Of a stretch of 64,000 nt of DNA, positions 32,101-64,000 are shown piece after piece (the first letter of the stretch is position 1; each line of letters begins with the position of its first letter). The position numbers and the translations under genes are program-made. This stretch comes from Antedon mediterranea (Eukaryota; Animalia; Echinodermata). The stretch spans positions 9,982,001 to 10,046,000 of the forward strand of contig NC_092674.1 of assembly GCF_964355755.1 (NCBI RefSeq), given 5' to 3'. The notes below the pieces were generated by a model that was not told the origin of the DNA, searched no databases, and saw only the letters and a list, made by a program, of their open reading frames with translations.

Positions 32101-33186
32101 AATAAAAAATACAATATAACCGAATGATTTATAAGGCTAAAATTACGTTATAAACGGCATGGACCGGGATGACGATACATGGGTTGGGACGAGTAGCGTC
32201 CAGTCATTTCAGAGAAATACCACTTGCCCCGGTCTATGCCGTCTAGCTGTCATTTTACGCCATTTTAAAACGTTACTACAATTTAAGGTTTTCATAAAAA
32301 ATGCAATGTAAACGTATGATTTATAGGGCTATATTTACGTTATAAACGGCATGGACCGGGATGAAGATACATGGGTTGGGGCAAGTAGGGTCCAGTCAAT
32401 TCAGAAAAATACCACTTGCCCCGGTCCATGCCGTCTAGCTATCATTTTACGCCATTTTAAAACGTTACTAAAATTTACGTTTTTTTAAATAAAAAATGCA
32501 ATATAACCGAATGATTTATAAGGCTATAATTACGTTATAAACGGCATGGACCGAGATGACGATACATGGGTTGGGGCAAGTATGGTCCAGTCAATTCAGA
32601 AAAATACCACTTGCCCCGGTCCATGCCGTCTAGCTGTCATTTTACGCCATTATAAAACGTTACTACAATTTAACGTTTTTAAAATAAAAAATGCAATATA
32701 AACGCATGATATAATAGGGCTATAATTACGTTATAAACGGCATGGACCGGGATGACGAGACATGGGTTGGGGCTAGTAAGGTCCAGTCGTTTCAGTAAAA
32801 TACCACTTGACCCGGTTCATGCCGTCTAGCGGCCATTTCACGCCATTTTAAAACGTTACTACAATTTAACTTTTTTATAAAAAATGCAATATAACCGGAA
32901 GATATAATTATAGGGCTATAATTACGTTATAAACGGCATGGACCGGGATGACGATACATGGGTTGGTGCGAGTAGGGTCCAGTCATTATAGAAAAGTACC
33001 ACTTGCCCTGGTCTATGCCGTCTAGTTGTCATTTTACGCCATTTTAAAACGTTACTACAATGTAACGTTTTTAAAAATAAAAAATGCACTATAAACGTAT
33101 GGTTTATAGGGCTATAATTACGTTATAAACGGCATGGACCGGGATGACGATACATTGATTGGGGTAAGTAGGGTCCAGTCATTTCA
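23180..33186 (+). repeat. Satellite A, left arm, ~192-200-bp monomer, about 52 copies
   Basis: GGCATGGACCGG starts at 23204, 23396, 23588 and onward. Length varies in poly-T/poly-A tracts. Confidence 0.97.
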
Positions 33187-39100: not shown

Positions 39101-40862
39101 AATCATTTGGTTATATTGCATTTTGTATTTAAAAAAATTAAATTGTAGTAACAGTAACGTTTTAAAATGGCTTAAAATGACAGCTAGACGGCATGGACCG
39201 GGGCAAGTGGTATTTTTCTGAAATGAATGGACCCTACTCGCCCAACCCATGTATCGTTATCTCGGTCCATGCCGTTTATAACGTAATTATAGCCCTATAT
39301 ATCATCCTGTTATATTGCATTTTTTATTTAAAAAAACGTGAAATTGTAGTAACGTTTTGAAATGGCGTAAAATGATAGCTAGACGGCATGGACCGGGGCA
39401 AGTGGTATTTTTCTGAATTGACTGGACCCTACTTGCCCCAACCGATGTATTGTCATCCCGGTCCATGCCGTTTATAACGTAATTATAGCCCTATAAATCA
39501 TTCGGTTATATTGCATCTTTTATATAAAAAAAACGTTAAATTGTAGTAACGTTTTAAAATGGCGTAAAATGATAGCTAGACGGCATGGACCGGGGCAAGT
39601 GGTATTTTTCTGAATTGACTGGACCCTACTTGCCCCAACCCATGTATCGTCATCCCGGTCCATGCCGTTTATAACGTAATTATAGCCCTATACATCATAC
39701 GTTTACATTGCATTTTTTATGAAAACCTTAAATTGTAGTAACGTTTTAAAATGGCGTAAAATGACAGCTAGACGGCATGGACCGGGGTAAGAGGTATTTT
39801 TCTGAAATGACTGGACCCTACTCGCCCCAACCCATGTATCGTCATCCCGGTCCATGCCGTTTATAACGTAATTATAGCCCTATAAATCATACGTTTACAT
39901 TGCATTTTTTATGAAAACCTTAAATTGTAGTAACGTTTTAAAATGGCGTAAAATGACAGCTAGACGGCATGGACCGGGGTAAGAGGTATTTTTCTGAAAT
40001 AACTGGATCCTACTCGCCCCAACCCATGTATCGTCATCCCGGTCCATGCCGTTTATAACGTAATTATAGCCCTATATTTCATCCGGTTATATTGCAATTT
40101 TTATAAAAACGTGAAATTGTAGTAAGGTTTTAAAATGGCGTGAAATGGCAGCTAGACGGCATGGACCGGGGTAAGAGGTATTTTTCTGAAATAACTGGAC
40201 CCTACTAGCCCCAACCCATGTATCGTCATCCCGGTCCATGCCGTTTATAACGTATTTATAGCCCTATAAATCATTCGGTTACATTGCATTTTTTATTTTT
40301 AAAAATTAAATTGTAGGACCGGTAACGTTTTAAAATGGCGTAAAATGACAGCTAGACGGCATGGACCGGGGCAAGTGGTATTTTTCTAAAATGACTGGAC
40401 CCTACTCGCCCCAACCCATGTATCGTCATTCCGGTCCATGCCGTTTATAACGTAATTATACCCCTATATATCATCCTGTTATATTGAATTTTTTATTTAA
40501 AAAAACGTTAAATTGTAGTAACGTTTTAAAATGGCGTAAAATGACAGCTAGTAGACGGCATGGACCGAGGCAAGTGGTATTTTTCTGAAACGACAGGACC
40601 CTACTAGCCCCAACCCATGTATCGTCATACCGGTCCATGCCGTTTATCACGTAATTATAGCCCTATAAATCATCCGGTTATATTGCATTTTTTATTTTAA
40701 AAAACGTTAAATTGTAGTAAGGTTTTAAAATGGCGTAAAATGACAGCTAGACGGCATGGACCGGGGCAAGTGGTATTTTTCTGAAACGACTGGACCCTAC
40801 TAGCCCGAACCCATGTATCGTCATCCCGGTCCATGCCGTTTATAACGAAGTTATAGCCCTAT
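33187..40862 (-). repeat. Satellite A, right arm in reverse orientation, about 40 copies
   Basis: Reverse complement of the same monomer (...CCCAACCCATGTATCGTCATCCCGGTCCATGCCGTTTATAACGTAATTATAGCCC...). Confidence 0.97.
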
Positions 40863-41036
40863 AAATCATAGCCCTAGTTAATCTAAGCCGTAAGTATAAA
40901 ATCATTTAATTAAAATAGTACACATATTGCGCCCCATACATGTGAATGTGAATGTCGAATAAGGATCCAACTTCACAAAAAAAATTGAATATCGAATAAG
41001 GAATAAGTAACCAACTTCACGCCGGTACTTGGTGGC

Positions 41037-42064: not shown

Positions 42065-42298
42065 GTCTAGCCTAGCCTCAAGTATCTAGCCTAGGCCTAG
42101 AGGTCTACCTCTGTTCAGCGTGTGTATTCCCTGCTGTCATTCATAAAATCTATAGAGCGTATACCGCTTGTGTCAAGCTAGCCGACAATAAGCCAGCCCA
42201 CTTTTATTTTTTCCAGCCGACAATAAGTATGAAACGCCGTTTGTGTATTTTTCACATTTTCAGTATTGCTTAAGGTTTTTATAGTATTAGAAATTCAA

Positions 42299-45200
42299 TA
42301 TTTGTGAGAAAATGGCGGATTGCTCCTGGGAGTCACTTGGTGGGATTATACTAGGGGACCTCCTTAATCGTCAAGTATAAGTTAGAGTAGAACCGCTGGT
42401 CCTGTTTACTCAGCCCTCATCTTTGAAATTTGAGTGTAACTCAATTTCGATTTTTAATATTATAGTGAAATTTGATACTGTATTTGTGAGAAAATGGCGG
42501 ATTGCTCCTGGGAGTCACTTTGTGGGATTATACTAGGGTACCTCCTTAGTCGTCCAGTATAAGTTAGGGTGGGACCACTGGTCCCGTTTACTCAGCCCTC
42601 ATCTTTTAAATCTGAGTGTAACTCAATTACGATTTTTAATATTATAGTGAAATTTGATACTGTATTTGTGAGAAAATGGCGGATTGCTCCTGGGAGTCAC
42701 TTGGTGGAATTATACTTGGGTACCTCCTTAGTCGTCCAGTATAAGTTAGAGTAGGACCGCTGGTCCTGTTTACTCAGCCCTCATCTTTTAAATCTGAGTG
42801 TAACTCAATTACGATTTTTAATATTATAGTGAAATTTGATACTGTATTTGTGAGAAAATGGCGGATTGCTCCAGGGAGTCACTTGGTGGGATTATACTAA
42901 GGTACCTCTTTGGTCGTCCAGTATAAGTTAGAGTAGGACCGCTGGTCTTGTTTACTCAGCCCTCATCTTTTAAATCTGAGTGTAACTCAATTACGATTTT
43001 TAATATTATAGTAAAATTTGATACTGTATTTGTGAGAAAATGGCGGATTGCTCCTGTGAGTCACTTGGTTGGATTATACTATAGGGTACCTCCTTAGTCG
43101 TCCAGTATAAGTTAGAGTAGGACCGCTGGTCCTGTTTACTCAGCCCTCATCTTTTTTAATCTGAGTGTAACTCAATTACGATTTTAAATATTATAGTGAA
43201 ATTTGGTACTGTATTTGTGAGAAAACGGCGGATTGCTCCTGGGAGTCACTTGGTGGGATTATACTAGGGGACCTCCTTAATCGTCAAGTATAAGTTAGAG
43301 TAGAACCGCTGGTCCTGTTTACTCAGCCCTCATCTTTGAAATTTGAGTGTAACTCAATTTCGATTTTTAATATTATAGTGAAATTTGATACTGTATTTGT
43401 GAGAAAATGGCGGATTGCTCCTGGGAGTCACTTTGTGGGATTATACTAGGGTACCTCCTTAGTCGTCCAGTATAAGTTAGGGTGGGACCACTGGTCCCGT
43501 TTACTCAGCCCTCATCTTTTAAATCTGAGTGTAACTCAATTACGATTTTTAATATTATAGTGAAATTTGATACTGTATTTGTGAGAAAATGGCGGATTGC
43601 TCCTGGGAGTCACTTGGTGGAATTATACTTGGGTACCTCCTTAGTCGTCCAGTATAAGTTAGAGTAGGACCGCTGGTCCTGTTTACTCAGCCCTCATCTT
43701 TTAAATCTGAGTGTAACTCAATTACGATTTTTAATATTATAGTGAAATTTGATACTGTATTTGTGAGAAAATGGCGGATTGCTCCAGGGAGTCACTTGGT
43801 GGGATTATACTAAGGTACCTCTTTGGTCGTCCAGTATAAGTTAGAGTAGGACCGCTGGTCTTGTTTACTCAGCCCTCATCTTTTAAATCTGAGTGTAACT
43901 CAATTACGATTTTTAATATTATAGTAAAATTTGATACTGTATTTGTGAGAAAATGGCGGATTGCTCCTGTGAGTCACTTGGTTGGATTATACTATAGGGT
44001 ACCTCCTTAGTCGTCCAGTATAAGTTAGAGTAGGACCGCTGGTCCTGTTTACTCAGCCCTCATCTTTTTTAATCTGAGTGTAACTCAATTACGATTTTAA
44101 ATATTATAGTGAAATTTGGTACTGTATTTGTGAGAAAACGGCGGATTGCTCCTGGAAGTCACTCGGTGGGATTATACTAGGGTACCTCCTTAGTCGTCCA
44201 GTATAAGTTAGAGTAGGACCGCAGGTCTTGTTTACTCAGCCCTCATCTTTTAAATCTGAGTGTAACTCAATTACGACTTTTTAATATTATAGTGAAATTT
44301 GATACTGTATTTGTGAGAAAATGGCGGATTGCTCCTGGGAGTCACTTGGTGGGATTATACTAGGGTACCTCCTTAGTCGACCAGTATAAGATAGGGTGGG
44401 ACCACTGGTCCCGTTTACTCAGCCCTCATCTTTTAAATCTGAGTGTAACTCAATTACGATTTTTAATATTATAGTGAAATTTGATACTGTATTTGTGAGA
44501 AAATGGCGGATTGCTTCTGGGGGTCACTTGGTGGGATTATACTAGGGTACCTCCTTAGTCATCCAGTATAAGTTAGAGTAGGACCACTGGTCCTGTTTAC
44601 TCAGCCCTCATCTTTTAAATCTGAGTGTAACTCAATTACGATTTTAAATATTATAGTGAAATTTGGTACTGTATTTGTGAGAAAACGGCGGATTGCTCCT
44701 GGAAGTCACTCGGTGGGATTATACTAGGGTACCTTCTTAGTCGTCCAGTATAAGTTAGAGTAGGACCGCTGGTCTTGTTTACTCAGCCCTCATCTTTGAA
44801 ATCTGAGTGTAACTCAATTACGATTTTTAATATTATAGTGAAATTTGGTACTGTATTTGTGAGAAAACGGCGGATTGCTCCTGGAAGTCACTCGGTGGGA
44901 TTATACTAGGGTACCTCCTTAGTTGTCTAGTATAAGTTAGAGTAGGACCACTGGTCCTGTTTACTCAGCCCTCATCTTTTAAATCTGAGTGTAACTCAAT
45001 TACGATCTTTAATATTATAGTGAAATTTGATACTGTATTTGTTAGAAAATGGTGGATTGCTCCCAGGAGTCACTTGGTGGGATTATACTAGGGGACCTCC
45101 TTAATCATCCAGTGTAAGTTAGAGTATGACCGCTGGTCCCGTTTACTCAGCCCTCATCTTTTAAATCTGAGTGTAACTCAATTACGATTTTTTATATAGT

Positions 45201-48200
45201 GAAATTTGATACTGTATTTGTGAGAAAATGGCGGATTGCTCCTGGGAGTCACTTGGTGAGATTATACTAGGGTACCTCCTTAGTCGACCAGTATAAGTTA
45301 GGGTAGGACCGCTGGTCTTGTTTACTCAGCCCTCATCTTTTTAAATCTGAGTGTAACTCAATTACGATTTTAAATATTATAGTGAAATTTGGTACTGTAT
45401 TTGTGAGAAAACAGCGGATTGCTCCTGGAAGTCACTCGGTGGGATTATACTAGGGTACCTCCTTAGTCGTCCAGTATAAGTTAGAGTAGGACCGCTGGTC
45501 TTGTTTACTCAGCCCTCATATTTTAATCTGAGTGTAACTCAATTACGATTTTTAATATTATAGGGAAATTTGGTACTGTATTTGTGAGAAAACGGCGAAT
45601 TGCTCCTGGAAGTCACTCGGTGGGATTATACTAGGGTACCTCCTTAGTTGTCCAGTATTTAAGTGAGAGTAGGACCGCTGGTTATGTTTACTCAGCCCTC
45701 ATCTTTTAAATCTGAGTGTAACTCAATTACGATCTTTATTATTATAGTGAAATTTGATACTGTATTTGTGAGAAAATGGCGGATTGCTCCTGGGAGTCAC
45801 TTGGTGGGATTATACTAGGGGACCTCCTTAATCGTCCAGTATAAGATAGAGTAGGACCGCTGGTCCCGTTTACTCAGCCCTCATCTTTTAAATCTGAGTG
45901 TAACTCAATTACGATTTTTTATATAGTGAAATTTGATACTGTATTTGTAAGAAAATGGCGGATTGCTCCTGGGTGTCACTTGGTGGGATTATACTAGGGG
46001 ATCTCCTTAATCGTCCAGTATAAGTTAGAGTAGGACCGCTGGTCCCGTTTACTCAGCCCTCATCTTTTAAATCTGAGTGTAACTCAATTACAATTTTTTA
46101 TATAGTGAAATTTGATACTGTATTTGTGAGAAAATGGCGGATTGCTCCTGGGAGTCACTTGGTGAGATTATACTAGGGTACCTCCTTAGTCGTCCAGTAT
46201 AAGTTAGAGTAGGACCGCTGGTCTTGTTTACTCAGCCCTCATCTTTTAAATCTGAGTGTAACTCAATTACGATTTTAAATATTATAGTGAAATTTGGTAC
46301 TGTATTTGTGAGAAAACGGCGGATTGCTCCTGGAAGTCACTCGGTGGGATTATACTAGGGTACCTCTTTAGTTGTCCAGTATCAGTTAGAGTAGGACCGC
46401 TGGTCCTGTTTACTCAGCCCTCATCTTTTAAATCTGAGTGTAACTCAATTACGATTTTTAATATTATAGTGAAATTTGATACTGTATTTGTGAGAAAATG
46501 GCGGATTGCTCCTGGGAGTCACTTGGTGGGATTATACTAAGGTACCTCTTTGGTCGTCCAGTATAAGTTAGAGTAGGACCGCTGGTCTTGTTTACTCAGC
46601 CCTCATCTTTTAAATCTGAGTGTAACTCAATTACGATTTTTAATATTATAGTAAAATTTGATACTGTATTTGTGAGAAAATGGCGGATTGCTCCTGTGAG
46701 TCACTTGGTTGGATTATACTAGGGTACCTCCTTAGTCGTCCAGTATAAGTTAGAGTAGGACCGCTAGTCCTGTTTACTCAGCCCTCATCTTTTTAAATCT
46801 GAGTGTAACTCAATTACGATTTTAAATATTATAGTGAAATTTGGTACTGTATTTGTGAGAAAACGGCGGATTGCTCCTGGAAGTCACTCGGTGGGATTAT
46901 ACTAGGGTACCTCCTTAGTCGTCCAGTATAAGTTAGAGTAGGACCGCAGGTCTTGTTTACTCAGCCCTCATCTTTTAAATCTGAGTGTAACTCAATTACG
47001 ACTTTTTAATATTATAGTGAAATTTGATACTGTATTTGTGAGAAAATGGCGGATTGCTCCTGGGAGTCACTTGGTGGGATTATACTAGGGTACCTCCTTA
47101 GTCGTTCAGTATAAGTTAGGGTGGGACCACTGGTCCCGTTTACTCAGCCCTCATCTTTTAAATCTGAGTGTAACTCAATTACGATTTTTAATATTATAGT
47201 GAAATTTGATACTGTATTTGTGAGAAAATGGCGGATTGCTCCCAGGAGTCACTTGGTGGGATTATACTAGGGGACCTCCTTAATCGTCCAGTATAAGTTA
47301 GAGTTGGACCGCTGGTTCCGTTTACTCAGCCCTCATCTTTTAAATCTGAGTGTAACTCAATTACAATTTTTTATATAGTGAAATTTGATACTGTATTTGT
47401 GAGAAAATGGCGGATTGCTCCTGGGAGTCACTTGGTGGGATTATACTAGGGTACCTCCTTAGTCGTCCAGTATAAGTTAGAGTAGGACCGCTGGTCCTGT
47501 TTACTCAGCCCTCATCTTTTAAATCTGAGTGTAACTCAATTACGATTTTAAATATTAAAGTGAAATTTGGTACTGTATTTGTGAGAAAACGGCGGATTGC
47601 TCCTGGAAGTCACTCGGTGGGATTATACTAGGGTACCTCCTTAGTTGTCCAGTATCAGTTAGAGTTGGACCGCTGGTCTTGTTTACTCAGCCCTCATCTT
47701 TTAAATCTGAGTGTAACTCAATTACGATTTTTAATATTATAGTGAAATTTGATACCGGTACTGTATTTGTGAGAAAATGGCGGATTGCTCCTGGGAGACA
47801 CTTGGTGGGATTATACTTAGGGTACCTCCTTAGTCGTCCAGTATAAGATAGGGTGGGACCACTGGTCCCGTTTACTCAGCCCTCATCTTTTAAATCTGAG
47901 TGTAACTCAATTACGATTTTTAATATTATAGTGAAATTTGATACTGTATTTGTGAGAAAATGGCGGATTGCTTCTGGGGGTCACTTGGTGGGATTATACT
48001 AGGGTACCTCCTTAGTCATCCAGTATAAGTTAGAGTAGGACCACTGGTCCTGTTTACTCAGCCCTCATCTTTTAAATCTGAGTGTAACTCAATTACGATT
48101 TTAAATATTATAGTGAAATTTGGTACTGTATTTGTGAGAAAACGGCGGATTGCTCCTGGAAGTCACTCGGTGGGATTATACTAGGGTACCTTCTTAGTCG

Positions 48201-51200
48201 TCCAGTATAAGTTACAGTAGGGCCGCTGGTCTTGTTTACTCAGCCCTCTTCTTTGAAATCTGAGTGTAACTCAATTACGATGTTTAATATTATAGTGAAA
48301 TTTGGTACTGTATTTGTGAGAAAACGGCGGATTGCTCCTGGAAGTCACTCGGTGGGATTATACTAGGGTACCTCCTTAGTTTTCCAGTATAAGTTAGAGT
48401 AGGACCACTGGTCCTGTTTACTCAGCCCTCATCTTTTAAATCTGAGTGTAACTCAATTACGATCTTTAATATTATAGTGAAATTTGATACTGTATTTGTT
48501 AGAAAATGGCGGATTGCTCCTGGGAGTCACTTGGTGGGATTATACTAGGGGACCTCCTTAATCATCCAGTGTAAGTTAGAGTATGACCGCTGGTCCCGTT
48601 TACTCAGCCCTCATCTTTTAAATCTGAGTGTAACTCAATTACGATTTTTTATATAGTGAAATTTGATACTGTATTTGTGAGAAAATGGCGGATTGCTCCT
48701 GGGAGTCACTTGGTGAGATTATACTAGGGTACCTCTTTAGTCGACCAGTATAAGTTAGGGTAGGACCGCTGGTCCTGTTTACTCAGCCCTCATCTTTTTA
48801 AATCTGAGTGTAACTCAATTACGATTTTAAATATTATAGTGAAATTTGGTACTGTATTTGTGAGAAAACAGCGGATTGCTCCTGGAAGTCACTCGGTGGG
48901 ATTATACTAGGGTACCTCCTTAGTCGTCCAGTATAAGTTAGAGTAGGACCGCTGGTCTTGTTTACTCAGCCCTCATATTTTAATCTGAGTGTAACTCAAT
49001 TACGATTTTAATATTATAGGGAAATTTGGTACTGTATTTGTGAGAAAACGGCGAATTGCTCCTGGAAGTCACTCGGTGGGATTATACTAGGGTACCTCCT
49101 TAGTTGTCCAGTATAAGTGAGAGTAGGACCGCTGGTTATGTTTACTCAGCCCTCATCTTTTAAATCTGAGTGTAACTCAATTACGATCTTTATTATTATA
49201 GTGAAATTTGATACTGTATTTGTGAGAAAATGGCGGATTGCTCCTGGGAGTCACTTGGTGGGATTATACTAGGGGACCTCCTTAATCGTCCAGTATAAGT
49301 TAGAGTAGGACCGCTGGTCCCGTTTACTCAGCCCTCATCTTTTAAATCTGAGTGTAACTCAATTACGATTTTTTATATAGTGAAATTTGATACTGTATTT
49401 GTAAGAAAATGGCGGATTGCTCCTGGGTGTCACTTGGTGGGATTATACTAAGGTACCTCCTTAGTCGTCCAGTATAAGTTAGAGTAGGACCGCTGGTCCT
49501 GTTTACCCAGCCCTCATCTTTTTAAATCTGAGTGTAACTCAATTACGATTTTTAATATTATAGTGATATTTGGTACTGTATTTGTGAGAAAACGGCGGAT
49601 TGCTCCTGGAAGTCACTCGGTGGGATTATACTAGGGTACCTCCTTAGTCGTCCAGTATAAGTTAGAGTAGGACCGCTGGTCTTGTTTACTCAGCCCTCAT
49701 CTTTGAAATCTGAGTGTAACTCAATTACGATTTTTAATATTATAGTGAAATTTGGTACTGTATTTGTAAGAAAACGGCGGATTGCTCCTGGAAGTCACTC
49801 GGTGGGATTATACTAGGGTACCTCCTCTTAGTTGTCCAGTATAAGTTAGAGTAGGACCACTGGTCTTGTTTACTCAGCCCTCATCTTTTAAATCTGAGTG
49901 TAACTCAATTACGATCTTTAATATTATAGTAAAATTTGATACTGTATTTGTGAGAAAATGGCGGATTGCTCCTGGGAGTCACTTGGTGGGATTATACTAG
50001 GGGACCTCCTTAATCGTCCAGCGTAAGTTAGAGTAGGACCGCTGGTCCTGTTTACTCAGCCCTCATCTTTTAAATCTGAGTGTAACTCAATTACGATTTT
50101 TAATATTATAGTAAAATTTGATACTGTATTTGTGAGAAAATGGCGGATTGCTCCTGTGAGTCACTTGGTTGGATTATACTAGGGTACCTCCTTAGTCTTC
50201 CAGTGCAGTATAAGTTAGAGTAGGACCGCTGGTCCTGTTTACTCAGCCCTCATCTTTTTAAATCTGAGTGTAACTCAATTACGATTTTAAATATTATAGT
50301 GAAATTTGGTACTGTATTTGTGAGAAAACGGCGGATTGCTCCTGGAAGTCACTCGGTGGGATTATACTAGGGTACCTCCTTAGTCGTCCAGTATAAGTTA
50401 GAGTAGGACCGCAGGTCTTGTTTACTCAGCCCTCATCTTTTAAATCTGAGTGTAACTCAATTACGACTTTTTAATATTATAGTGAAATTTGATACTGTAT
50501 TTTTGAGAAAATGGCGGATTGCTCCTGGGAGTCATTTGGTGGGATTATACTAGGGTACCTCCTTAGTCGTCCAGTATAAGTTAGGGTGGGACCACTGGTC
50601 CCGTTTACTCAGCCCTCATCTTTTAAATCTGAGTGTAACTCAATTACGATTTTTAATATTATAGTGAAATTTGATACTGTATTTGTGAGAAAATGGCGGA
50701 TTGCTCCCAGGAGTCACTTGGTGGGATTATACTAGGGGATCTCCTTAATCGTCCAGTATAAGTTAGAGTAGGACCGCTGGTCCCGTTTACTCAGCCCTCA
50801 TCTTTTAAATCTGAGTGTAACTCAATTACAATTTTTTATATAGTGAAATTTGATACTGTATTTGTGAGAAAATGGCGGATTGCTCCTGGGATTCACTTGG
50901 TGGGATTATACTAGGGTACCTCCTTAGTCGTCCAGTATAAGTTAGAGTAGGACCGCTGGTCTTGTTTACTCAGCCCTCATCTTTTAAATCTGAGTGTAAC
51001 TCAATTACGATTTTAAATATTATAGTGAAATTTGGTACTGTATTTGTGAGAAAACGGCGGATTGCTCCTGGAAGTCACTCGGTGGGATTATACTAGGGTA
51101 CCTCTTTAGTTGTCCAGTATCAGTTAGAGTAGGACCGCTGGTCTTGTTTACTCAGCCCTCATCTTTTAAATCTGAGTGTAACTCAATTACGATTTTTAAT

Positions 51201-54200
51201 ATTATAGTGAAATTTGATACTGTATTTGTGAGAAAATGGCGGATTGCTCCTGGGAGACACTTGGTGGGATTATACTAGGGTACCTCCTTAGTCGTCCAGT
51301 ATAAGATAGGGTGGGACCACTGGTCCCGTTTACTCAGCCCTCATCTTTTAAATCTGAGTGTAACTCAATTACGATTTTTAATATTATAGTGAAATTTGAT
51401 ACTGTATTTGTGAGAAAATGGCGGATTAATCCTGGGGGTCACTTGGTGGGATTATACTAGGGTACCTCCTTAGTCATCCAGTATAAGTTAGAGTAGGACC
51501 ACTGGTCCTGTTTACTCAGCCCTCATCTTTTAAATCTGAGTGTAACTCAATTACGATTTTAAATATTATAGTGAAATTTGGTACTGTATTTGTGAGAAAA
51601 TGGCGGATTGCTCCTGGGAGTCACTTGGTGGGATTATACTAGGGTACCTCCTTAGTCGTCCAGTATAAGTTAGAGTATGACCGCTGGTCCCGTTTACTCA
51701 GCCCTCTTCTTTTAAATCTGAGTGTAACTCAATTACGATTTTTTATATAGTGAAATTTGATACTGTATTTGTGAGAAAATGGCGGATTGCTCCTGAGATT
51801 CACTTGGTGAAATTATACTAGGGTACCTCCTTAGTCGACCAGTATAAGTTAGAGTAGGACCGCTGGTTCTGTTTACTCAGCCCTCGTTTTTTTAAATCTG
51901 AGTGTAACTCAATTACGATTTTAAATATTATAGTGAAATTTGGTACTGTATTTGTGAGAAAACGGCGGATTGCTCCTGGAAGTCACTCGGTGGGATTATA
52001 CTAGGGTACCTCCTTAGTCGTCCAGTATAAGTTAGAGTAAGACCGCTGGTCTTGTTGACTCAGCCCTCATATTTTAAATCTGAGTGTAACTCAATTACGA
52101 TTTTTAATATTATAGGGAAATTTGGTACTGTATTTGTGAGAAAACGGCGAATTGCTCATGGAAGTCACTCGGTGGGATTATACTAGGGTACCTCTTTAGT
52201 TGTCCAGTATAAGTGAGAGTAGGACCGCTGGTTATGTTTACTCAGCCCTCATCTTTTAAATCTGAGTGTAACTCAATTACGATCTTTAATATTATAGTGA
52301 AATTTGATACTGTATTTGTGAGAAAATGGCGGATTGCTCCTGGGATTCACTTGGTGGGATTTTACTAGGGGACCTCCTTAATCGTCCAGTATAAGTTAGA
52401 GTAGGACCGCTGGTCCCGTTTACTCAGCCCTCATCTTTTAAATCTGAGTGTAACTCAATTACGATTTTTTATATAGTGAAATTTGATACTGTATTTGTGA
52501 GAAAATGGCGGATTGCTCCTGGGTGTCACTTGGTGGGATTATACTAGGGTACCTCCTTAGTCGTCCAGTATAAGTTAGAGTAGGACCGCTGGTCCTGTTT
52601 ACTCAGCCCTCATCTTTTTAAATCTGAGTGTAACTCAATTACGATTTTAAATATTATAGTGAAATTTGGTACTGTATTTGTGAGAAAACGGCGGATTGCT
52701 CCTGGAAGTCACTCGGTGGGATTATACTAGGGTACCACCTTAGTCGTCCAGTATAAGTTAGAGTAGGACCGCTGGTCTTGTTTACTCAGCCCTCATCTTT
52801 GAAATCTGAGTGTAACTCAATTACGATTTTTAATAATATAGTGAAATTTGGTACTGTATTTGTGAGAAAACGGCGGATTGCTCCTGGAAGTCACTCGGTG
52901 CGATTATACTAGGGTACCTCCTCTTAGTTGTCCAGTATAAGTTAGAGTAGGACCACTGGTCCTGTTTACTCAGCCCTCATCTTTTAAATCTGAGTGTAAC
53001 TCAATTACGATCTTTAATATTATAGTGAAATTTGATACTGTATTTGTGAGAAAATGGCGGATTGCTCCTGGGAGTCACTTGGTGGGATTATACTAGGGGA
53101 CCTCCCTAATCGTCCAGTGTAAGTTAGAGTAGGACCGCTGGTCCCGTTTACTCAGCCCTCATCTTTTATATCTGAGTGTAACTCAATAACGATTTTTTAT
53201 ATAGTGAAATTTGATACTGTATTTGTGAGAAAATGGCGGATTGCTCCTGAGAGTCACTTGGTGAGATTATACTAAGGTACCTCCTTAGTCGTCCAGTTTA
53301 AGTTAGGGTGGGACCACTGGTCCCGTTTACTCAGCCCTCATCTTTTAAATCTGAGTGTAACTCAATTACGATTTTAAATATTATAGTGAAATTTGGTACT
53401 GTATTTGTGAGAAAACGGCGGATTGCTCCTGGAAGTCACTCGGTGGGATTATACTAGGGTACCTCCTTAGTCGTCCAGTATAAGTTAGAGTAGGACCGCT
53501 GGTTTTGTTTACTCAGCCCTCATATTTTAAATCTGAGTGTAACTCAATTACGATTTTTAATATTATAGGAAAATTTGGTACTGTATTTGTGAGAAAACGG
53601 CGAATTGCTCCTGGAAGTCACTCGGTGGGATTATACTAGGGTACCTCCTTAGTTAGTTGTCCAGTATAAGTAAAGAGTAGGACCGCTGGTTATGTTTACT
53701 CAGCCCTCATCTTTTAAATCTGAGTGTAACTCAATTACGATTTTTAATATTATAGTGAAATTTGATACTGTATTTGTGAGAAAATGGCGGATTGCTCCTG
53801 GGAGTCACTTGGTGGGATTATACTAGGGTACCTCCTTAGTCGTCCAGTATAAGTTAGAGTAGGACCGCTTGTCCTGTTTACTCAGCCCTCATCTTTTTAA
53901 ATCTGAGTGTAACTCAATTACGATTTTAAATATTATAGTGAAATTTGGTACTGTATTTGTGAGAAAACGGCGGATTGCTCCTGGAAGTCACTCGGTGGGA
54001 TTATACTAGGGTACCTCCTTAGTCGTCCAGTATAAGTTAGAGTAGGACCGCTGGTCTTGTTTACTCAGCCCTCATCTTTTAAATCTGAGTGTAACTCAAT
54101 TACGATTTTTAATATTATAGTGAAATTTGGTACTGTATTTGTGAGAAAACGGCGGATTGCTCCTGGAAGTCACTCGGTGGGATTATACTAGGGTACCTCC

Positions 54201-54415
54201 GTAGTCGTCCAGTATAAGTTAGGGTGGGACCACTGGTCCCGTTTACTCAGCCCTCATCTTTTAAATCTGAGTGTAACTCAATTACGATTTTTTATATAGT
54301 GAAATTTGAAACTGTATTTGTGAGAAAATGGCGAATTGCTCCTGGGAGTCACTTGGTGGGATTATACTAGGGTACCTCCTTAGTCGTCCAGTATAAGTTA
54401 GAGTAGGACCACTGG
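42299..54415 (+). repeat. Satellite B, ~180-184-bp monomer, about 66 copies
   Basis: TTTGTGAGAAAATGGCGGATTGCTCC at 42301, 42483 and onward. No visible similarity to satellite A beyond a short motif. Confidence 0.97.
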
Positions 54416-54677
54416 ACAACTAAGGAGGTACCCTAGTATAATCCCACCGAGAGTGACTTCCAGGAGCAATCCGCCGTTTTCTCACAAATACAGTACCAAA
54501 TTTCACTATAATATTTAAAATCGTAATTGAGTTACACTCAGATTTAAAAAGATGAGGGCTGCTGAGTAAACAGGACCAGCGGTCCTACTCTAACTTATAC
54601 TGGACGACTAAGGAGGTACCCTAGTATAATCCCACCAAGTGACTCCCAGGAGCAATCCGCCATTTTCTCACAAATAT
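54411..54677 (-). repeat. Satellite B, inverted arm, about 1.4 monomers
   Basis: Reverse-complement monomer runs directly into the right outer TIR. Confidence 0.92.
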
Positions 54678-55369
54678 TGAATTTCTAATACTATAAAAAC
54701 CTTAAGTAATACTGAAAATGTGAAAAATACACAAACGGCGTTTCATAGTTATTGTCGGCTGGAAAAAATAAAAGTGGGCTGGCTTATTGTCGGCTGGCTT
54801 ATTGTCGGCTAGCTTGACACAAGCGCGTATACTCATGTTTTTTCGTTCAGAAGGAAGGAAGGAAGCATGCAGCAGCTCCATATATGGTTTTATTTGAATA
54901 CTGCCATCTATAGTTTCTCAGAGTGGTTTGCTTGCATCATCAGTGGGTGGAGAGGAGGTGGTAGGTGGTACTGGTGGTTATTTAAGGGGCGCATTTGATA
55001 ATCGTGCCAAAACTAGCTGTGATATTATAAAAAAAGATATGTTTTTCGATCTCTACTTAATTAAATACATTATTAACAATTGTAGGGGTTTACCGTCGAA
55101 AATTGATGGGACCATAATGTTCACTGCATCATCTCAATCATCATAGATATACAAATTACTCATTATCATGATCACTATCCTCATCACCAAATTATTTGGG
55201 GAACAATGATTATTGAGTAACTTGTATACCTCCACGATCTAGTTTTAATAATTACCTTTTTAGGCCTAACCACATCACAAAAACTGAATCAGCTTGACTG
55301 GAATCTTGTTTATTCGTTCATCGTATGTGTAATCGTAATTCCATCAAATGAAATGTGTATGGCATAGTG

Positions 55370-56430
55370 TTTCATTTGTATGTCTGTACATGCTACCTTG
55401 GTATGGAACGGTGTTTCGTCTGTCTGTCGGTATGCTCCTACCGTATTTGTATTGAACAGTCTTTCGTCTGTGTTCTCATTTGATATGTCATGAAACAATT
55501 GTTTCTTCTGTCTTTCCATATGCTCCAACTTGTATAGAACAGTCTTTCGTCTGTATGTATTCCTTTGGTACGACATCATGACAGAATAATTGTTTTGTCT
55601 GTCTGTCCGTATGCTCCTGTTTGTATGGAACAATCTTACGTCTGTCTGTGTGCTCCTTTGGTACGTCATGAGATTAATTGTTTTGTCTGTCTGTCCGTAT
55701 GCTCCTATTTGTATGGAACAGTCTTTCGTCTGTCTGTGTTCTCCTTTGGTACGTCATGAGAGAATTGTTTCGTCTGTCTGTCCATGCTCCTATTTGTATG
55801 GATAAGTCTTTCGTCTGTCTGTGTTCACCTTTGGTACGTCGTGAGAGAATTGTTTCGTCTGTCTGTCCGTATGCTCCTATTTGTATGGAACAGTCTTTCG
55901 TCTGTGTCCGTATGCTCATATTTGTATGGAACAGTCTTTCGTCTGTCTGTGTGCTCCTTTGGTACGTCATGACAGAATTGTTTCGTCTGTCTGTCCGTAT
56001 GCTCCTATTTGTATGGAACAGTCTTTCGTCTGTCTGTGTGCTCTTTTGGTACGTCATGACAGAATTGTTTCGTCTGTCTGTCTGTATGCTCCTATTTGTA
56101 TGGAACAGTCTTTCGTCTGTCTGTGTGCTCTTTTGTACGTCATGAGAGAATTTTTCGTCTGTCTCTCCGTATGCTCCTATTTGTATTAAACAGTTTTTCG
56201 TCTGTCTGTGTGCTCCTTTAATTCATGACAGAATTGTTTCGTCTGTCTGTCCATATGCTCCTATTTGTGTGGAGCAGTCTTTTGTCTGTCTGTGTGCTCC
56301 TTTATTTAATTTATGACAGAATTCATCTCGTCTGTCTGTCCGTATGCTCCTATTTGTATGGACCAGTCTTTCGTCTGTCTGTGTGCTCCTTTGGTACGTC
56401 ATGATAATTGTTTTGTCGGTCTGTCTTTCC
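55370..56430. repeat. ~87-bp minisatellite with GTCT subrepeats, about 11-12 copies
   Basis: Unit ATGACAGAATTGTTTCGTCTGTCTGTCCGTATGCTCCTATTTGTATGGAACAGTCTTTCGTCTGTCTGTGTGCTCCTTTGGTACGTC, degenerate at both edges. Confidence 0.9.
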
Positions 56431-56784: not shown

Positions 56785-57292
56785 AAATAGAGGACATCTC
56801 ATGTGACGGTTTGTATATGATGAGACCCCAGATTACATCTATCAGAGTACATTAATAAATAGAGGGCATCTCATGTGACGGTTTGTATATGATGAGACCC
56901 CAGATTACATCTATCAGAGTACATTAATAAATAGAGGGCATCTCATGTGACGGTTTGTATATGATGAGACCCCAGATTACATCTATCAGAGTACATTAAT
57001 AAATAGAGGGCATCTCATGTGACGGTTTGTATATGATGAGACCCCAGATTACATCTATCAGAGTACATTAATAAATAGAGGGTATCTCATGTGACGGTTT
57101 GTATATGATGAGACCCCAGATTACATCTATCAGAGTACATTAATAAATAGAGGGCATCTCATGTGACGGTTTGTATATGATGAGACCCCAGATTACATCT
57201 ATCAGAGTACATTAATAAATAGAGGGCATCTCATGTGACGGTTTGTATATGATGAGACCCCAGATTACATCTATCAGAGTACATTAATAAAT
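56785..57292. repeat. 72-bp tandem repeat, 7 nearly identical copies
   Basis: AAATAGAGGGCATCTCATGTGACGG... at 56785, 56857, 56929, 57001, 57073, 57145 and 57217. Confidence 0.95.
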
Positions 57293-58235
57293 ATTTTGTT
57301 TACAAATAAAATGAGAACAAATAGTAATGACCATTTTGAATATAAATTAATCATTACAAAGAGTAATAAAAACAAATGCATTTATCAGATACATACAACA
57401 TAAAAACAGTATATAGCTTTACTTCAACCGTTTATTTGTATATTCTAGTAGATACATTAAGATAAGGCCATATTGTAGCCTACTATACGGTAATATACTG
57501 TATGCATTACAACTTCTTTACCGATACTATAGCCACCTACTCTGTCGTTTTGTATACAATGATCATTCAAAATACCTTCACCAAAATACAGTAAACCGAT
57601 AAGTATAATAATTAAACAGTCTTTCTAAATACGTATCATCTTGCGTAGATGCGTACCAAAATATGTGCAGCAGCACAAATTCTGGATAATTCACTTATTA
57701 ATTAACTGTGGGCTTATTTTGATTACCACGTTTTGGACTGTTGGGATAAGAATCAATTTGATAGTTTGGATGAAAATGTGTCGTAACGTCACAAAAAAAA
57801 CATAACTTGACGACGACAAACTGTAACGTATAATTGTGATTCCACCCCACCCCATTTATCAGCATGTTTACATGTGGTTTTTTTTCACTGGTTATCGCCA
57901 TGAACATCAGATCATACGTTTCTCTTCATTCTTAATAATATAGCCTATAAGTCTGTCTCGTTCACTAAAAATAAGAATTTCTGCCAGTAATTTAGGTCAC
58001 TGAAATAATTTAATTTGGGACTCATAATACTAGTCAAACTAATGCTAGGCATTATAGTCATGTTTAGCTTGTTGGTGATTGATCTGTATAATTATACAAA
58101 CACATGCAGAGTAAGCAAAAAAATAATGAAAAACTTAAATCAAAACTCTGATCATAAAGAAACTATTCACATCATTCATCTGATGGGACTCTTTTACTAT
58201 TTTAATGAAGCACAATATGCCTATAATCAAATTAT

Positions 58236-58554
58236 TTACATTAACTGATACCGTAGCTTGCAATTCTGCATGTGAAGTGTTTGCAACTTAGGTGCCTTTT
58301 TCAAGAAGGTGACCAGTAAAGTAGCATTAATGTCACCTAAATCATTATTGCCAATATAAAGTTCTTGTATACGCTATCATCATTTCATTCATTACGTCAC
58401 CTGATAGTTTGCAACCATTCATACCAAGTAAAGTACCATCAATGTCACTGATACAATTACCCCAAATAGAAAGTTCTTGTAGTGCCAACTCATTTACTCC
58501 ATACACTCTCATCATTTCATTCATTACGTCACCTGATATGTTGCAACTGTTCAT
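58236..58554 (-). pseudogene. Out-of-frame, decayed LRR tail of the NLR gene
   Basis: After the premature stop, LRR sequence continues in other frames (MNSCNISGD...ELSIWGNCISDIDGTLLG, then IQELYIGNNDLGDINATLLVTFLKKAPKLQTLHMQNCKL) with internal deletions. Confidence 0.75.
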
Positions 58555-60480
58555 TCCAATTTAAGCCGCTTAGGACACTTACTCAGAAAAGTACCAAGTA
58601 TAGTACCATCAATGTCACTGATACAATTACCACAAATAGAAAGTTCTTGTAGTGTTAACTCATTTACTCCATACACTTTCATCATTTCATTCATTACGTC
58701 ACCTGATATGTTGCAACTGGTCATGCTAAGTTTAAGCAGCTTAGGACACTTACTCAGAAAAGTACCAAGTAAATTACCATTAATGTCACCGAAACAATTA
58801 CCCGCAATATAAAGTACTTGTAGTGCTAACTCAGCTTTTCCATACACTCTCATTATTTCATTCATTACGTCACCTGATATGTTGCAACTGCTCATGTAAA
58901 GTTTAAGCAGCTTAGGACACTTACTCAGAAAAGTACCAAGTAAAGTACCATCAATGTCACTGATACAATTACCCCTAATAGAAAGTTCTTGTAGTGTTAA
59001 CTCATTTACTCCATACAGTTTCATCATTTCATTCATTACGTCACCTGATATGTTGCAACTGTTCATGTCAAGTTTAAGCAGCTTAGGACACTTACTCAGA
59101 AAAGTACCAAGTAAAGTACCATCAATGTCACTGATACAATTACCACTAATAGAAAGTTCTTGTAGTGCTAACTCATTTACTCCATACAGTTTCATCATTT
59201 CATTCATTACTTCACCTGATATGTTGCAACTCCTCATGTAAAGTTTAAGCAGCTTAGGACACTTACTCAGAAAAGTACCAAGTAAAGTACCATCAATGTC
59301 ACCGATACAATTACCCCTAATAAAAAGTTCTTGTAGTGTTAACTCATTTACTCCATACACTTTCATCATTTCTTTCATTACGTCACCTGATATGTTGCAA
59401 CTGTTCATGCCAAGTTTAAGCAGCTTAGGACACTTACTCAGAAAAGTACCAAGTAAAGTACCATCAATGTCACTGATACAATTACCCCAAATAGAAAGTT
59501 CTTGTAGTGCTAACTCATTTACTCCATACACTCTCATCATTTCATTCATTACGACACCTGATATGTTGCAACTGTTCATGTAAAGTTTAAGCAGCTTAGG
59601 ACACCTACTCAGAAAAGTACCAAGTAAAGTACCATCAATGTCACTGATACAATTACCCCAAATAGAAAGTTCTTGTAGTGTTAACTCATTTACTCCATAC
59701 AGTTTCATCATTTCATTCATTACGTCACCTGATATGTTGCAACTGTCCATGTCAAGTTTAATCAGCTTAGGGCACTTACTCAGAAATGTACCAAGTAAAG
59801 TACCATCAATGTCACTGATACAATTACCCAAAATAGAAAGTTCTTGTAGTGCTAACTCAGCTTTTCCATACACTTTCATCATTTCATTCATTACGTCACC
59901 TGATATGTTGCAACTGTTCATGTCAAGTTCAAGCAGCTTAGGGCACTTACTCAGAAAAGTACCAAGTAAAGTACCATCAATGTCACTGATACAATTACCA
60001 CGAATAAAAAGTTCTTGTAGTGTTAACTCATTTACTCCATACACTCTCATTATTTTATTCATTACGTCACCTGATATGTTGCAACTGTTCATGTAAAGTT
60101 TAAGCAGCTTAGGACACTTACTCAGAAAATTACCAAGTAAAGTACCATCAATGTCACTGATACAATTACCCCTAATAGAAAGTTCTTGTAGTGTTAACTC
60201 ATTTACTCCATACACTTTCATCATTTCATTCATTACGTCACCTGATATGTTGCAACTGTTCATGTCAAGTTTAAGCAGCTTAGGGCACTTACTCAGAAAT
60301 GTACCAAGTAAAGTACCATTAATGTCACCGAAACAATTACCCGCAATATAAAGTACTTGTAGTGCTAACTCAGCTTTTCCATACACTCTCATTATTTCAT
60401 TCATTACGTCACCTGATATGTTGCAATTAATCATAGAAAGTACAACCAATTTAGGAAACGTATTCAAGAAAGTACCCAGT
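58430..60480 (-). repeat. Coding 171-bp tandem repeat (57-aa double LRR unit), about 12 units
   Basis: Period of 171 bp is visible directly in the DNA. Each unit is a pair of 28/29-residue ribonuclease-inhibitor-type LRRs. Confidence 0.95.
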
Positions 60481-62419
60481 GAAGTACCATCAATGTCCCC
60501 AAGATCATTATCATTGATACTGAGTACAACTAAATTTGGTATAGCTCCTTCATTACACTCATTTATATCATGTATAACTTTTCCGGATAGATTACACTCA
60601 TTCATCTCAAATGAAAGATAAACAACCGATATCATCATTAACCAATGTAGTAAAGAGGCATCAATATTTCTGAGATTATTATTACTTATGTTGAAACTGA
60701 GTAAGGCCATAGTACCACCTATTTTTTTTAACTCTCTAATCATATCATTCATTTCTTCACCTGATAGATTGCAATTACCTAAATCAAGGTGAATGGCCAA
60801 AAGGTATACAATGTGTGCAAGAATGTTTCCTTTACCATCAGGTGATAATGTTTTACAAAAGGTACTAAAATCAAATCCATTAAGAATCAAGCTATGAACT
60901 TGCCACAGAAGGTCTATAAAATGCTCCCCCTCAACTGAATTTGAATTATTGTACTTAATTAACATCTTTAATGACTTTGATATATCATTGTGTTGGTCTA
61001 GGTTTTTGCTGACCATGTGCGTTTTTAAGGCACTGGTCACAGTATCACGATGTTGATTTTTAACACATTTGAAGTAAACATTTATGAAAGTACGATAGAT
61101 TGATAAATTGTTTGAAAGCCAATGCTTTAAGAATTTACCTGCATCAGCACCAAAAAATCCAACAGCATGCATATTTGCTCCTGTTAAAAATTGTCCTGTT
61201 ATTGCCGTCGATTCGTTCGTGCCTTCTCTTTCACAAAGTTTGTATAGATAAAATCCTGCTAATGCTTCTTGTATCAAGATGTGTGTAGGCATGTATACCT
61301 CAATTTTTGAATCAGACCTTGAACCTGATGCTTGTTCATCAACAAATCCTAGTTTAATTGCCAAGTTAACTAGACTTTTATCTTCGTTAGCTTCCAAATC
61401 TTTTTTGTTAATTGAAAATTGATTTTTTTTCAAGCTTTTATACATACACTTTCCTAAGAAAGTCATAGCATTTACATATTTTTCTGGGATGTCTTCAAAT
61501 TTCAAAAATGGTTTGTCTCCTGTGTTATATTTTACACAGTAATGATTCAAAATACATCGAAAAAGTTCCTTGAAAAGATCAGCAAGATTAGAAGGAAGAC
61601 TTTGTTCTTTGTCTTCATAAATAATACAAATTGAAAGAAGTAGCATTGGCTTTTTGCATAATTCATACGCTAAAATGTTCTTGGTCTCTTTTATTTCTTG
61701 CTGAAGGTCATTCCCAAGTTTAGGCTTATTAAATATTTGGAAATAATTGTCAATGTACTTTTCGATACTATCTTGATTAAATCCTTCAACTTTCACGTGT
61801 ATATCACACATTCTTATAAACTCATCTATGTTTTCTGACCGTGAAGTGAGTAGCACAGCGCTCTTTTCTAATGTGGTTTTCTTAAAAAGACTTATCAAGC
61901 TTTTATTCCTAAAGCGTACTTCATCTAACCCATCTAATAATAATACAATTTTATTGTCATGATTGTTAATAAATCTCTTTATTAACATTGTATCTCCTGG
62001 GAGATATGTTTTGAAATTGAAATCTTCTTTATCCAGTTGTTTTTCAATCAGATCATAGATACTCTTGCCTTCTTCTAAATCTCTTAACTCCAATAAAAAA
62101 ACAATTTTACCTTCAAACGCCATTGGTTTGCTAATGGTTGTGCTGTATGCTAAATACTTTAATAGAGTTGTTTTACCAATACCAGCCTCACCAGAAATAA
62201 GAACTCTACATCCAGCTGTGGATTTGATATTATCTAATAATTCTGGTAATGTTGTTGGATGACTGTTCTTCCTCTGATTATCTTCTATGACAAGGTTTAA
62301 TTCAGTGAAAATTTCAATATTTAAATATGATTGGCTATCCATTATCGATGGCGTAAATCGTTCATTATTTGTATGGCACAATCTTTGTTGTCTATCACGC
62401 AGGTAGTTTTCTATTATTT
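58551..62419 (-). CDS. NLR-family (NACHT-LRR) innate immune receptor, large exon; N-terminal effector domain not seen in the window
   Basis: Walker A GEAGIGKTT, Walker B VLLLDGLDE, sensor-1 LLTSR and winged-helix THILIQEALAG, followed by RI-type LRRs. The frame stays open back to a ttttacag acceptor at 62420-62421, so the ORF-track start at 62381 (TTG) is not the real start. Confidence 0.92.
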
Positions 62420-63049
62420 CTGTAAAATAAGCAAAATAATTCGATCAACCAATATCATTTATAAAAAGCCTTTTTTTGGACATAATATGATATGTATACT
62501 CTAAAAAGACTAACAGGAAGTTGACCAAATATAACTGTAAATATGGACATCTGTTTAAACAATGATGATAATCAAGAACCCCTGTGCGTAATGTTTGTTT
62601 AGCAACCATTCACAGAATATCGTTTGGGAGGAAGGAATTACTTTTCTTTGATGATACAAAGCCTCCCGGATCAATTGCACATGTATAACTATGCCTACGG
62701 TTCATTATAAACAAAGAGAAAAAAATACCCTAATACGCAAAAATACATATGTTCAATTTTAGATAATAATTTATTTAAAATTCATAAATACCAATGCCAT
62801 AAACTTATGTTTAACCAATATACCAAATGAATTCTATATTTAACACTTTTACTCTCAGTACCGGTACTATCCACATGGCGTTATTTTATGCAATATGATA
62901 TAGATAAATTCACATTTGTATCACATGTATCTCCAATATTATAAAAGCTTAGATTACTATTTGGTTAATACTAAAAGGGTCGATAAACGGATGTAAAAGA
63001 TGTTGCATCACACATTTGACACTATACTAGACAAATTGTAGATACCACT

Positions 63050-63485
63050 GATCTGATTGATTGATTGATTTATTATGGAGAAATACGATACATATACACT
63101 TATTTCTCATGATAGTAGCCTACTGAGAATCTGGATGTTCAGAGTTGGTTGATAGATGCAGGTGTAAGTTGATCAGTCTATTTCGTGCCTGCTTACCTGG
63201 ATAAACCGTCAATATAGCCTCTCTCTCCGAAGAGAGGATACAATTTACGAAAAAGAAAAATCCGTATATATAACATAGCACCCCTATCGGATAATGCACG
63301 CATCCGTAACCACGCCCTCAAGAGGGAGCCATCCAACGTAGTAGCGTCAACATTTCTTTTCGTACTGCCATTGTGTTCATACGTGATACAAAGAACCCGA
63401 TAGAATTCCAGGAATTCAGAGAATACAAGCCGAAGCTAAGTTCCTTTGTTCAGTCAATATAGTGATTAGACAGGCTTAGTCATTC
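63050..63485 (-). mobile_element. Probable 3' UTR and tail of a non-LTR retroelement
   Basis: The minus strand ends AATAAA(TCAA)3 at ~63075-63055 and contains hairpins CTCTC-TTCG-GAGAG and CCCTC-TT-GAGGG. Confidence 0.5.
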
Positions 63486-63487
63486 CT

Positions 63488-64000
63488 GTTAAGCAACTTG
63501 TTGCTCAGAAAATCACAGAAAAACGTGTTAGCAAATCTATTGAAATTGCAAACAAAGGTGGTAAATCTTGTAAAGACTTTTGGAAAGTGCTAAAAGGCAA
63601 TACAAATAACAGTAAAAATATTCAATGTATTAAATCAAGAGACTCTGGTGAAAACATTGTCGAAAAAGGGAAAATGAATGAGGTTGTAAAAGATTACTGG
63701 GAAAATCTTGGCAAAGCCAATATGAATCTTAATGATTGCGGTACTTACCTTACAAGTCGTTTTGTTAATAATATTAGAAATCAAACAAAAACAAATTGTA
63801 CATATGATAAAGATGTTGACGAAAATTGTTTGTATGATGTTAAGATAGATTATGATATTGTAAAAGAGGCTATACTAATGGCAAAGAATAATAAGTCACC
63901 AGGTCTAGATAATATAACAAATGAATTAATTAAGAATGGTGGCAACAAATTAATCAGATCTATATTAGACCTATTTTTACAAATTTTAAAACTAGAACAA
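63488..64000 (+). mobile_element. LINE ORF2 fragment (region leading into the reverse transcriptase), running off the window
   Basis: Stop-free frame ...CKDFWKVLKG...VVKDYWENL...IVKEAILMAKNNKSPGLDNITNELIKNGGNKLIRSILDLFLQIL. KSPGxDxI is the conserved motif before non-LTR RT domains. Confidence 0.88.

Follow-up and report, generated by a model that had tools for sequence, protein, structure and literature searches.

The locus described here raises the question of how an invertebrate receptor might come by new specificities. Few ligands are known for the large NLR families that marine invertebrates carry. In a 64,000-nucleotide stretch of the crinoid Antedon mediterranea (hereafter the window), nearly identical leucine-rich repeat (LRR) units are arranged in tandem within an NLR gene. 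A preliminary description of this DNA proposed that exchange of such repeats within one exon, with variation on ligand-facing residues, may act as a system of receptor diversification.

Gene model and the 171-bp array

The array belongs to an unbroken minus-strand frame of 1297 codons (62444-58551), and the interval first assigned to it (58430..60480) is mostly the 3' part of this frame. The frame is 100% identical, over 99% of its length, to P0002, a 1521-aa NACHT-LRR protein labelled Antedon mediterranea by NCBI, and the next 41 matches among the 63 hits of the protein search are all from Antedon or Anneissia japonica. A splice acceptor, TTTTACAG (62421-62420), lies just ahead of the last coding exon, which runs without a break through the NACHT domain and all repeats. 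No upstream exons of the gene were found within the 64-kb window, and they lie beyond it. The features of the gene, with coordinates in the window, are as follows:

58551..62419, minus strand: last coding exon of the NLR, with NACHT, helical domains, LRR array and stop (residues 233-1521 of P0002)
61737..62204, minus strand: NACHT domain (Pfam PF05729, 72.7 bits, cut-off 26.7)
62192-62169, minus strand: Walker A motif of the NACHT domain, GEAGIGKT
61943-61920, minus strand: Walker B motif of the NACHT domain, LLLDGLDE
60438..60800 (boundary approximate), minus strand: older LRRs that have diverged, preceding the array (upstream of 60500, lag-171 identity drops to 5-20/30)
58557..60437, minus strand: eleven in-frame 171-bp units, each of two RI-type LRRs (28+29 aa), from TRF with phasing from 60437
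58551..58560, minus strand: 1-bp deletion and resulting stop (protein end CPKRLKLE, the same as in P0002)
58250..58550, minus strand: untranslated sequence left from unit 12 and from the terminal LRRs (the relic), delineated by alignment and carrying deletions of 39 bp and 20 bp

The gene is an animal NLR (NACHT-LRR), as had been proposed from the sequence: its NACHT domain retains both Walker motifs, and its C-terminal LRRs score above the Pfam cut-offs for LRR_4, LRR_1 and LRR_6. Pfam gave no match to WD40 or HET domains in the protein. At the N terminus, residues 12-77 of P0002, encoded by exons outside the window, match DED weakly (E 3.5e-5; 24.4 bits, below the cut-off of 35.9).

TRF delimits the array at 58422-60497, with 12.1 copies of 171 bp, 91% matches and 0% indels, and phasing from 60437 gives 11 units of exactly 57 codons each. 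Units are numbered so that column 1 is the C of CNISG, which places the most variable codons (hereafter hot codons) in columns 26, 28, 54 and 56. As a mean of all unit pairs, units differ by 12.7 per 168 nt (~92% identity) and are 84% identical at the protein level, so the description of about 11 near-identical in-frame units was borne out. At lag 57 the protein identity is 0.90 over 110 aa, above the level of more than 85% over at least 100 aa that marks the repeats of NLRs with high internal conservation (PMC4986451). The alternating 28- and 29-aa repeats, the strands 28 and 29 residues apart and the 57-aa unit are traits of RI-type LRRs. All units adjoin each other in one open frame, rather than following the one-exon-per-module layout of vertebrate NLRP. 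The residues read at the variable positions also recur in the translated units: before GN stand A, R, R, L, W, W, R, S, R, A and C with the codons listed, the first x of L-x-I-x-GN is Y, S or F, and L-x-M-x-SC carries D/Y/G/S and N/D/R/S/T, to which I in the border unit 1 is to be added.

The frame does not remain open throughout the interval that had been taken as coding. The loss of a single base between 58560 and 58559 makes the protein stop at a TGA (58553-58551) inside unit 11, and 58430-58550 is part of a decayed relic. The deletion cut the array by about two units. Further deletions lie in the relic, of 39 bp at 58423/58422 and of 20 bp at about 58370; two further deletions thus fall in the 310-bp relic, while the 1881-bp array has none (probability by length about 0.02). 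Decay of the relic while the array and NACHT stayed open suggests that the shortened gene is still kept, and it is likely still in use despite its truncation.

Other samples were consulted as contigs of sequencing runs, which drop variants and whose depth is not a copy number. Run X1 is probably the source sample, while X5 carries the same organism label from another sample and study and is guessed to be RNA. Contigs of X1 and X3 span the 20-bp deletion with zero differences; no contig among those listed for X1 spans the 1-bp deletion. An X5 contig matches up to the acceptor at 62421 and continues with 108 letters that could not be placed, whereas X6 contigs run across the acceptor, so the X5 contig is probably a spliced transcript.

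Replacement changes and the predicted binding face

A model of units 4-8 built on a 20-row alignment (pLDDT 95.3) shows a regular strand-helix solenoid; it superseded a single-sequence model with a pLDDT of 57. Its best matches include ribonuclease inhibitor, NOD2 and NLRP3 (TM 0.70-0.77), with values of 0.70-0.75 for ribonuclease inhibitor. Columns 24-26 and 52-54 form strands in the model, while columns 28 and 56 start the following loop. Columns 26, 28, 54 and 56 are predicted to point outward, on the concave face and its C-terminal edge, the direction being taken from the LxLx alternation described in the available part of PMC2747839.

Changes between units were counted as the least number per codon column, with no tree and with ties assigned to silent changes, in 56 of the 57 columns; column 53 was excluded owing to the deletion. 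Units 2-11 differ by at least 39 replacement changes on 133.7 sites and at least 2 silent changes on 34.3 sites. The ten codons of the xxLxLxx strands, set a priori from LRR structure, hold 19 of these 39 replacement changes where 18% are expected (p = 1.5e-5), and columns 26, 28, 54 and 56, picked post hoc, hold 16. Across all 11 units the figures are 22 of 42 on the ten strand codons and 18 of 42 on the four hot columns; for the eight most alike units only, the count is 12 of 26 replacement changes. All four top columns fall among the ten predefined ones (p = 6e-4). Variation does concentrate on the strand-face codons, as proposed, but it is not confined to the four hot ones. Of the 39 replacement changes in units 2-11, 20 fall on the remaining 46 codons, and many of these 20 stem from a divergent unit type that occurs twice, in units 1 and 10.

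Pairwise pN/pS is 2.3 for all units and 3.6 for units 2-11. The comparison of models M1a and M2a, made with our own code and naive posterior values and of a kind inflated by recombination between units, gave 2dL of 50.2 on a tree and 59.2 on a star, and put 6% of sites at omega about 28. The posterior exceeds 0.9 on both tree and star for columns 28, 54 and 56, and on the star tree only for column 26. The expected dN/dS above 1 with very low dS is borne out by the site model, with omega about 28 at three codons, and by the 2 silent changes. Outside the ten strand codons, the remaining 46 give no sign of purifying selection when units are compared (20 replacement and 2 silent changes; fitted background class omega = 1), which is how a neutral or dying array would behave. 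As far as the available part of PMC5120217 goes, young protein repeats evolve under relaxed purifying plus positive selection, a pattern that fits the neutral-looking scaffold of the NLR units.

Local mutability was considered with two controls. In the 17 codons around the strands, about 20 replacement changes stand beside 0 counted silent changes on 10.5 silent sites (p about 0.01), although one Arg codon pair could conceal a silent step. When the four-column mask is placed on three non-coding tandem arrays of the window, it attains the share seen in the NLR in 1 of 38,800 placements. For the ten-column mask this happens in 18 of 38,800, and for the four best columns in 3 of 315 windows, which overlap. 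Among windows of the 192-bp satellites, 6 of 99 and 11 of 45 contain triplets with at least 7 alleles, against 0 of 162 for the 182-bp satellite. The four hot codons themselves hold only 2.2 silent sites, which leaves room for single-base hotspots. At the level of the sequence, the pattern is real, statistically solid and family-wide, and it allows candidate specificity codons to be named, three or four per unit.

Signs of exchange between units, and the paralogous arrays

The units also bear signs of exchange. The four-gamete test fails in 40 of 105 pairs of informative sites among the focal units, and the longest identical tract between units lies nine units apart:

60314..60426, minus strand: 113-bp tract in unit 1, a unit of the divergent type
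58775..58887, minus strand: identical 113-bp partner tract in unit 10, nine units downstream

Part of this divergent tract is also carried by unit 4. Recurrent mutation could explain some of the four-gamete failures but hardly the 113-bp tract. Together with mosaic units in one frame, these signs agree with the proposal of repeat exchange within one exon.

Paralogues were compared as proteins only, dN/dS covering the focal gene alone. The unit comparison used 44 of the 63 protein hits (P0002-P0045), omitting weak, mostly microbial NACHT-only hits, and the cluster analysis covered 37 crinoid NLR genes with at least 3 units each, 257 units altogether. The nearest unit lies in the same gene for 153 of the 257 units, where 8.4 are expected. 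All 11 focal units form one clade, and the best unit from any other gene is 69% identical; at this level (0.69), no exchange of units with other genes was seen for the focal gene, whose units have evidently evolved in concert. Some Anneissia models, which may be alleles, have units in common at 0.94-1.0. In 36 of the 37 genes, conservation is lower at face positions than elsewhere in the unit, as expected of any LRR, and the hottest face columns vary by gene, columns 56 and 28 ranking 12th and 13th in 21 paralogues.

The closest paralogue, P0068 (Antedon, 3951 aa), has about 49 repeat anchors, and 43 of its 57-aa units were analysed, of which 29 are distinct. Identical units recur at lags 5 and 8 (7 and 6 pairs), which points to block duplications of 5 and 8 units. 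Its units are 75% alike among themselves and 59% alike to the focal units, and its repeat number far exceeds one turn of an RI-like solenoid. A search for shorter homologues returned 3 Antedon proteins. In P0013, P0008, P0022 and P0028 of Anneissia, an OTU protease or TIR-like domain stands ahead of NACHT, and the arrays have longer higher-order units of about 116-150 aa.

Similar arrays reach beyond crinoids, as 62 of the 199 fetched proteins have at least 75% periodic identity over 110 aa, and the 8 named among 20 non-crinoid-looking ones include proteins of an annelid, a brittle star, fishes and a frog. NACHT was found in 7 of the 8 non-crinoid array proteins scanned. P0112 (annelid) and P0122 (brittle star) are NACHT proteins with independent, near-identical 56/57-aa LRR arrays; the greatest variation in the annelid array likewise falls just after the strand. 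The P0112 model also has MULE and FLYWCH domains and is perhaps a gene-model fusion. Judged by these alignments, the array design is family-wide among crinoid NLRs and not restricted to crinoids.

Variation between samples was sought in the contigs. The sole listed X5 contig over columns 54-56 (111 nt) has five listed substitutions and one inserted base, and these agree with the unit 9/10 junction, a version seen in 1 of the 11 assembled junctions. X1 shows several versions at this site, and its contigs repeat the unit-specific codons. The X5 contig is a weak hint of a differently composed array in another animal; its depth of 188, against 13-18 in the NACHT part, was not taken as a count. X5 differs at 34 of 1001 positions in 60476-61482 (6 of them gap letters) and at 11 of 840 in 61459-62298 (p = 0.004), a comparison in which contigs could mix alleles or a close copy. 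In X1, markers of units 8 and 11 have depths of 256 and 275, similar to the 266-320 of unique flanks, which gives no sign of a second array allele in that sample. A 153-nt X1 contig with 2 differences from assembled unit 1 and 8 from unit 10 is either a graph chimaera or a real second haplotype, the two being indistinguishable. Coverage gaps were not used as evidence, such as the part of the divergent unit type for which X5 offers no contig at 92%. Under another organism label (share 0.06), X6 and X8 match NACHT pieces at 94-98% and an array piece at 85%, with gaps at 92%.

Comparable systems and competing explanations

The closest parallel is with fungi, as the preliminary description suggested: repeat identity, few hypervariable codons and concerted evolution are all found in the crinoid gene. 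In the available parts of PMC4986451 and PMC13449251, the fungal NLRs with high internal conservation (Podospora het-e/het-d with WD40 repeats; others with ANK or TPR) likewise combine a NACHT sensor with near-identical repeats, about four positively selected hypervariable positions on a predicted binding face, and concerted evolution by unequal exchange. In HNWD genes the repeats are 80-100% identical and carry four hypervariable positions, unequal crossing-over being the presumed mode of their evolution (PMC13449251); ANK and TPR NLRs behave like the WD40 type, and the part of PMC4986451 available reports no LRR in fungal NLRs. The focal gene differs in its RI-type LRRs, its animal host and its DED-like N terminus (a weak match). 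Moreover, length polymorphism and function are demonstrated in the fungal systems, whereas the focal gene is known from sequence and length polymorphism is only hinted at. By analogy, it would work like the Podospora HNWD family; it is not a member, as it has LRRs and is without WD40 or HET. A survey of ANK, TPR, WD40 and LRR proteins places such NLRs also in animals, plants and bacteria, and its Figure 8 or supplements may contain an animal LRR example (PMC13449251). A literature search, which missed most subscription papers and supplements, returned no published study of crinoid NLR repeat arrays. What is new is thus the LRR-based, intronless animal variant, the evolutionary principle being already known and its occurrence in animals already in print.

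Other systems share single features, as far as the available parts of the sources describe them. Rice Xa1 alleles have 4-6 near-perfect 93-aa LRR units and different resistance spectra, and these CTR-NLRs resemble the focal gene in being NLRs whose LRR domain consists of nearly perfect tandem units; they differ in unit length, in their BED and NB domains and in their restriction to grasses, and the unit sequences are non-homologous (PMC7748011). The focal protein, with its 57-aa unit and NACHT rather than a plant NB domain, falls outside the Gramineae CTR-NLRs. PRDM9 likewise has, in animals, a coding tandem array whose contact positions are under positive selection, and its between-repeat dN/dS of 2.7 compares with the pN/pS of 2.3-3.6 in the focal array (PMC5120217); yet it is a single gene of DNA-binding zinc fingers acting in meiosis, whereas the focal NLR belongs to a multigene receptor family. 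The same 171-bp module (28+29 aa) and fold class occur in vertebrate NLRP and RI-type LRRs, but each module of NLRP3 is a separate exon that varies via splicing or exon duplication (PMC6642158), while the focal modules all lie in one exon and have probably been selected apart. The LRRs of zebrafish NLR-B30.2 are described as not particularly variable (PMC4852459). Ectocarpus ROCO-LRR and NB-ARC-TPR proteins are, like the focal gene, candidate immune receptors with shuffled repeats and diversifying selection, and a somatic hypothesis has been raised for them; they differ in having one exon per repeat, a brown-algal host and a different NTPase (PMC3341825).

The observations are probably best explained by a crinoid NACHT-LRR gene whose intronless 171-bp array undergoes unequal exchange in the germline, with diversifying selection at three or four predicted face codons, which would yield a fast-changing intracellular sensor. 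Tandem 171-bp units would mispair, and unequal crossing-over or conversion would copy whole and partial units, alter their number and order and erase silent differences. The scaffold would be kept uniform while exchange reshuffles units in the germline, and new residues at the face codons would be retained as they change the binding of the solenoid. In NLRs, ligand binding frees the NACHT domain, which leads to a signal via a death-fold-like domain; binding by the focal NLR would similarly release NACHT and signal through its death-fold-like N terminus. We infer exchange as the cause of mosaicism, selection over base hotspots, germline timing, ligand sensing and death-fold-like signalling. A bolder version is unlikely but deserves mention: a crinoid-wide receptor generator in a basal deuterostome, with dozens of NLR genes carrying intronless LRR minisatellites (3 to >40 units) and unequal exchange so fast that individuals, perhaps even coelomocyte clones, differ in binding surface, giving a PRDM9-like anticipatory repertoire for pathogen or allo-recognition.

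Near-neutral drift is an improbable account. It holds that a young array grew by slippage-like unequal exchange and varies at tolerant exposed codons and a few fast-mutating bases, with no selection for diversity. The background omega of about 1, the G-run at column 28 and the 7-8 alleles reached at one triplet in some windows of the neighbouring satellites all agree with it. However, neutrality limits omega to 1, while 16 replacement changes fall on the 9.8 sites of the hot codons and silent changes number only 2 on 34.3 sites; adjoining silent positions are invariant, and the four top columns would all have to fall among the predefined ten. It is unlikely that the pattern is a fossil, in which selection built the array and the frameshift then killed the copy, leaving a transcribed pseudogene. 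The 1-bp deletion, the lost terminal LRRs and an L-to-R change at a core position three codons before the break would suit such a history, but the 3.87 kb exon is open with intact Walker motifs while the relic gained two more deletions, a second sample holds a probable spliced contig, and paralogues too lack a long cap, although most of them end after a helix.

Somatic assembly of receptors has a precedent in an LRR system. Lamprey VLRs are extracellular, have a surface of LRR modules with variable concave residues, and are assembled somatically from flanking cassettes into an incomplete gene. The focal gene shares the LRR-module surface and, by prediction, the variable concave residues. Rearrangement or conversion of units in immune cells, giving clonal receptors, is nevertheless very unlikely: only the modular design speaks for it, mosaic units fitting any exchange process, while the gene is complete as assembled, its NACHT architecture is cytoplasmic and unit markers have single-locus depth in the probable source sample. 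No LRR cassettes were found outside 58200-62500 in the window, which extends to 64000, with the 5' side of the gene beyond it, and the idea of VLR-style cassettes finds no support within that span. That the array or its variants are assembly artefacts is extremely unlikely. Tandem arrays are prone to assembly errors in general, and the 1-bp deletion is unspanned by the listed X1 contigs; yet the 171-bp period is exact and without indels, unit-specific codons recur in X1 short-read contigs, and like arrays exist in many paralogues of two crinoid species.

Under the favoured reading of germline exchange with selection at face codons, the fungal scheme of identical repeats with few hot residues would extend to animal LRR receptors, by an intronless route unlike the exon modules of vertebrates. 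As the 171-bp module lies in one exon within the span of a single long amplicon and occurs family-wide, tests of allele turnover, of germline against somatic change and of swapped units are feasible.

Several other elements occupy the window. An 18-kb foldback-like element (23010-41028) has long terminal inverted repeats and two head-to-head arrays of 192-bp units with a turning point at 33186, and TACTTGGT at both ends is a likely 8-bp target-site duplication. In a second such element of 12.7 kb (42165-54825), one arm holds a 182-bp unit repeated about 66 times and the inverted arm is short; CGTATAC (8 bp with the adjoining G) recurs on both flanks. Both may be non-autonomous DNA transposons whose arms have grown into satellites. 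Downstream of the NLR, minisatellites with 87/88-bp and 72-bp units (the latter 99% identical, 7 copies) lie at 55412-56425 and 56785-57293. On the plus strand, an open frame of 471 codons at 8268-9683 is rich in Ser/Pro/Gln and has PPxY-like motifs towards its end; it lacks a Pfam match and is probably an exon of an unrelated gene. Another plus-strand open frame without a Pfam match lies in the NLR intron (63470-64000) and presumably resembles the region ahead of the reverse transcriptase of non-LTR retrotransposons.
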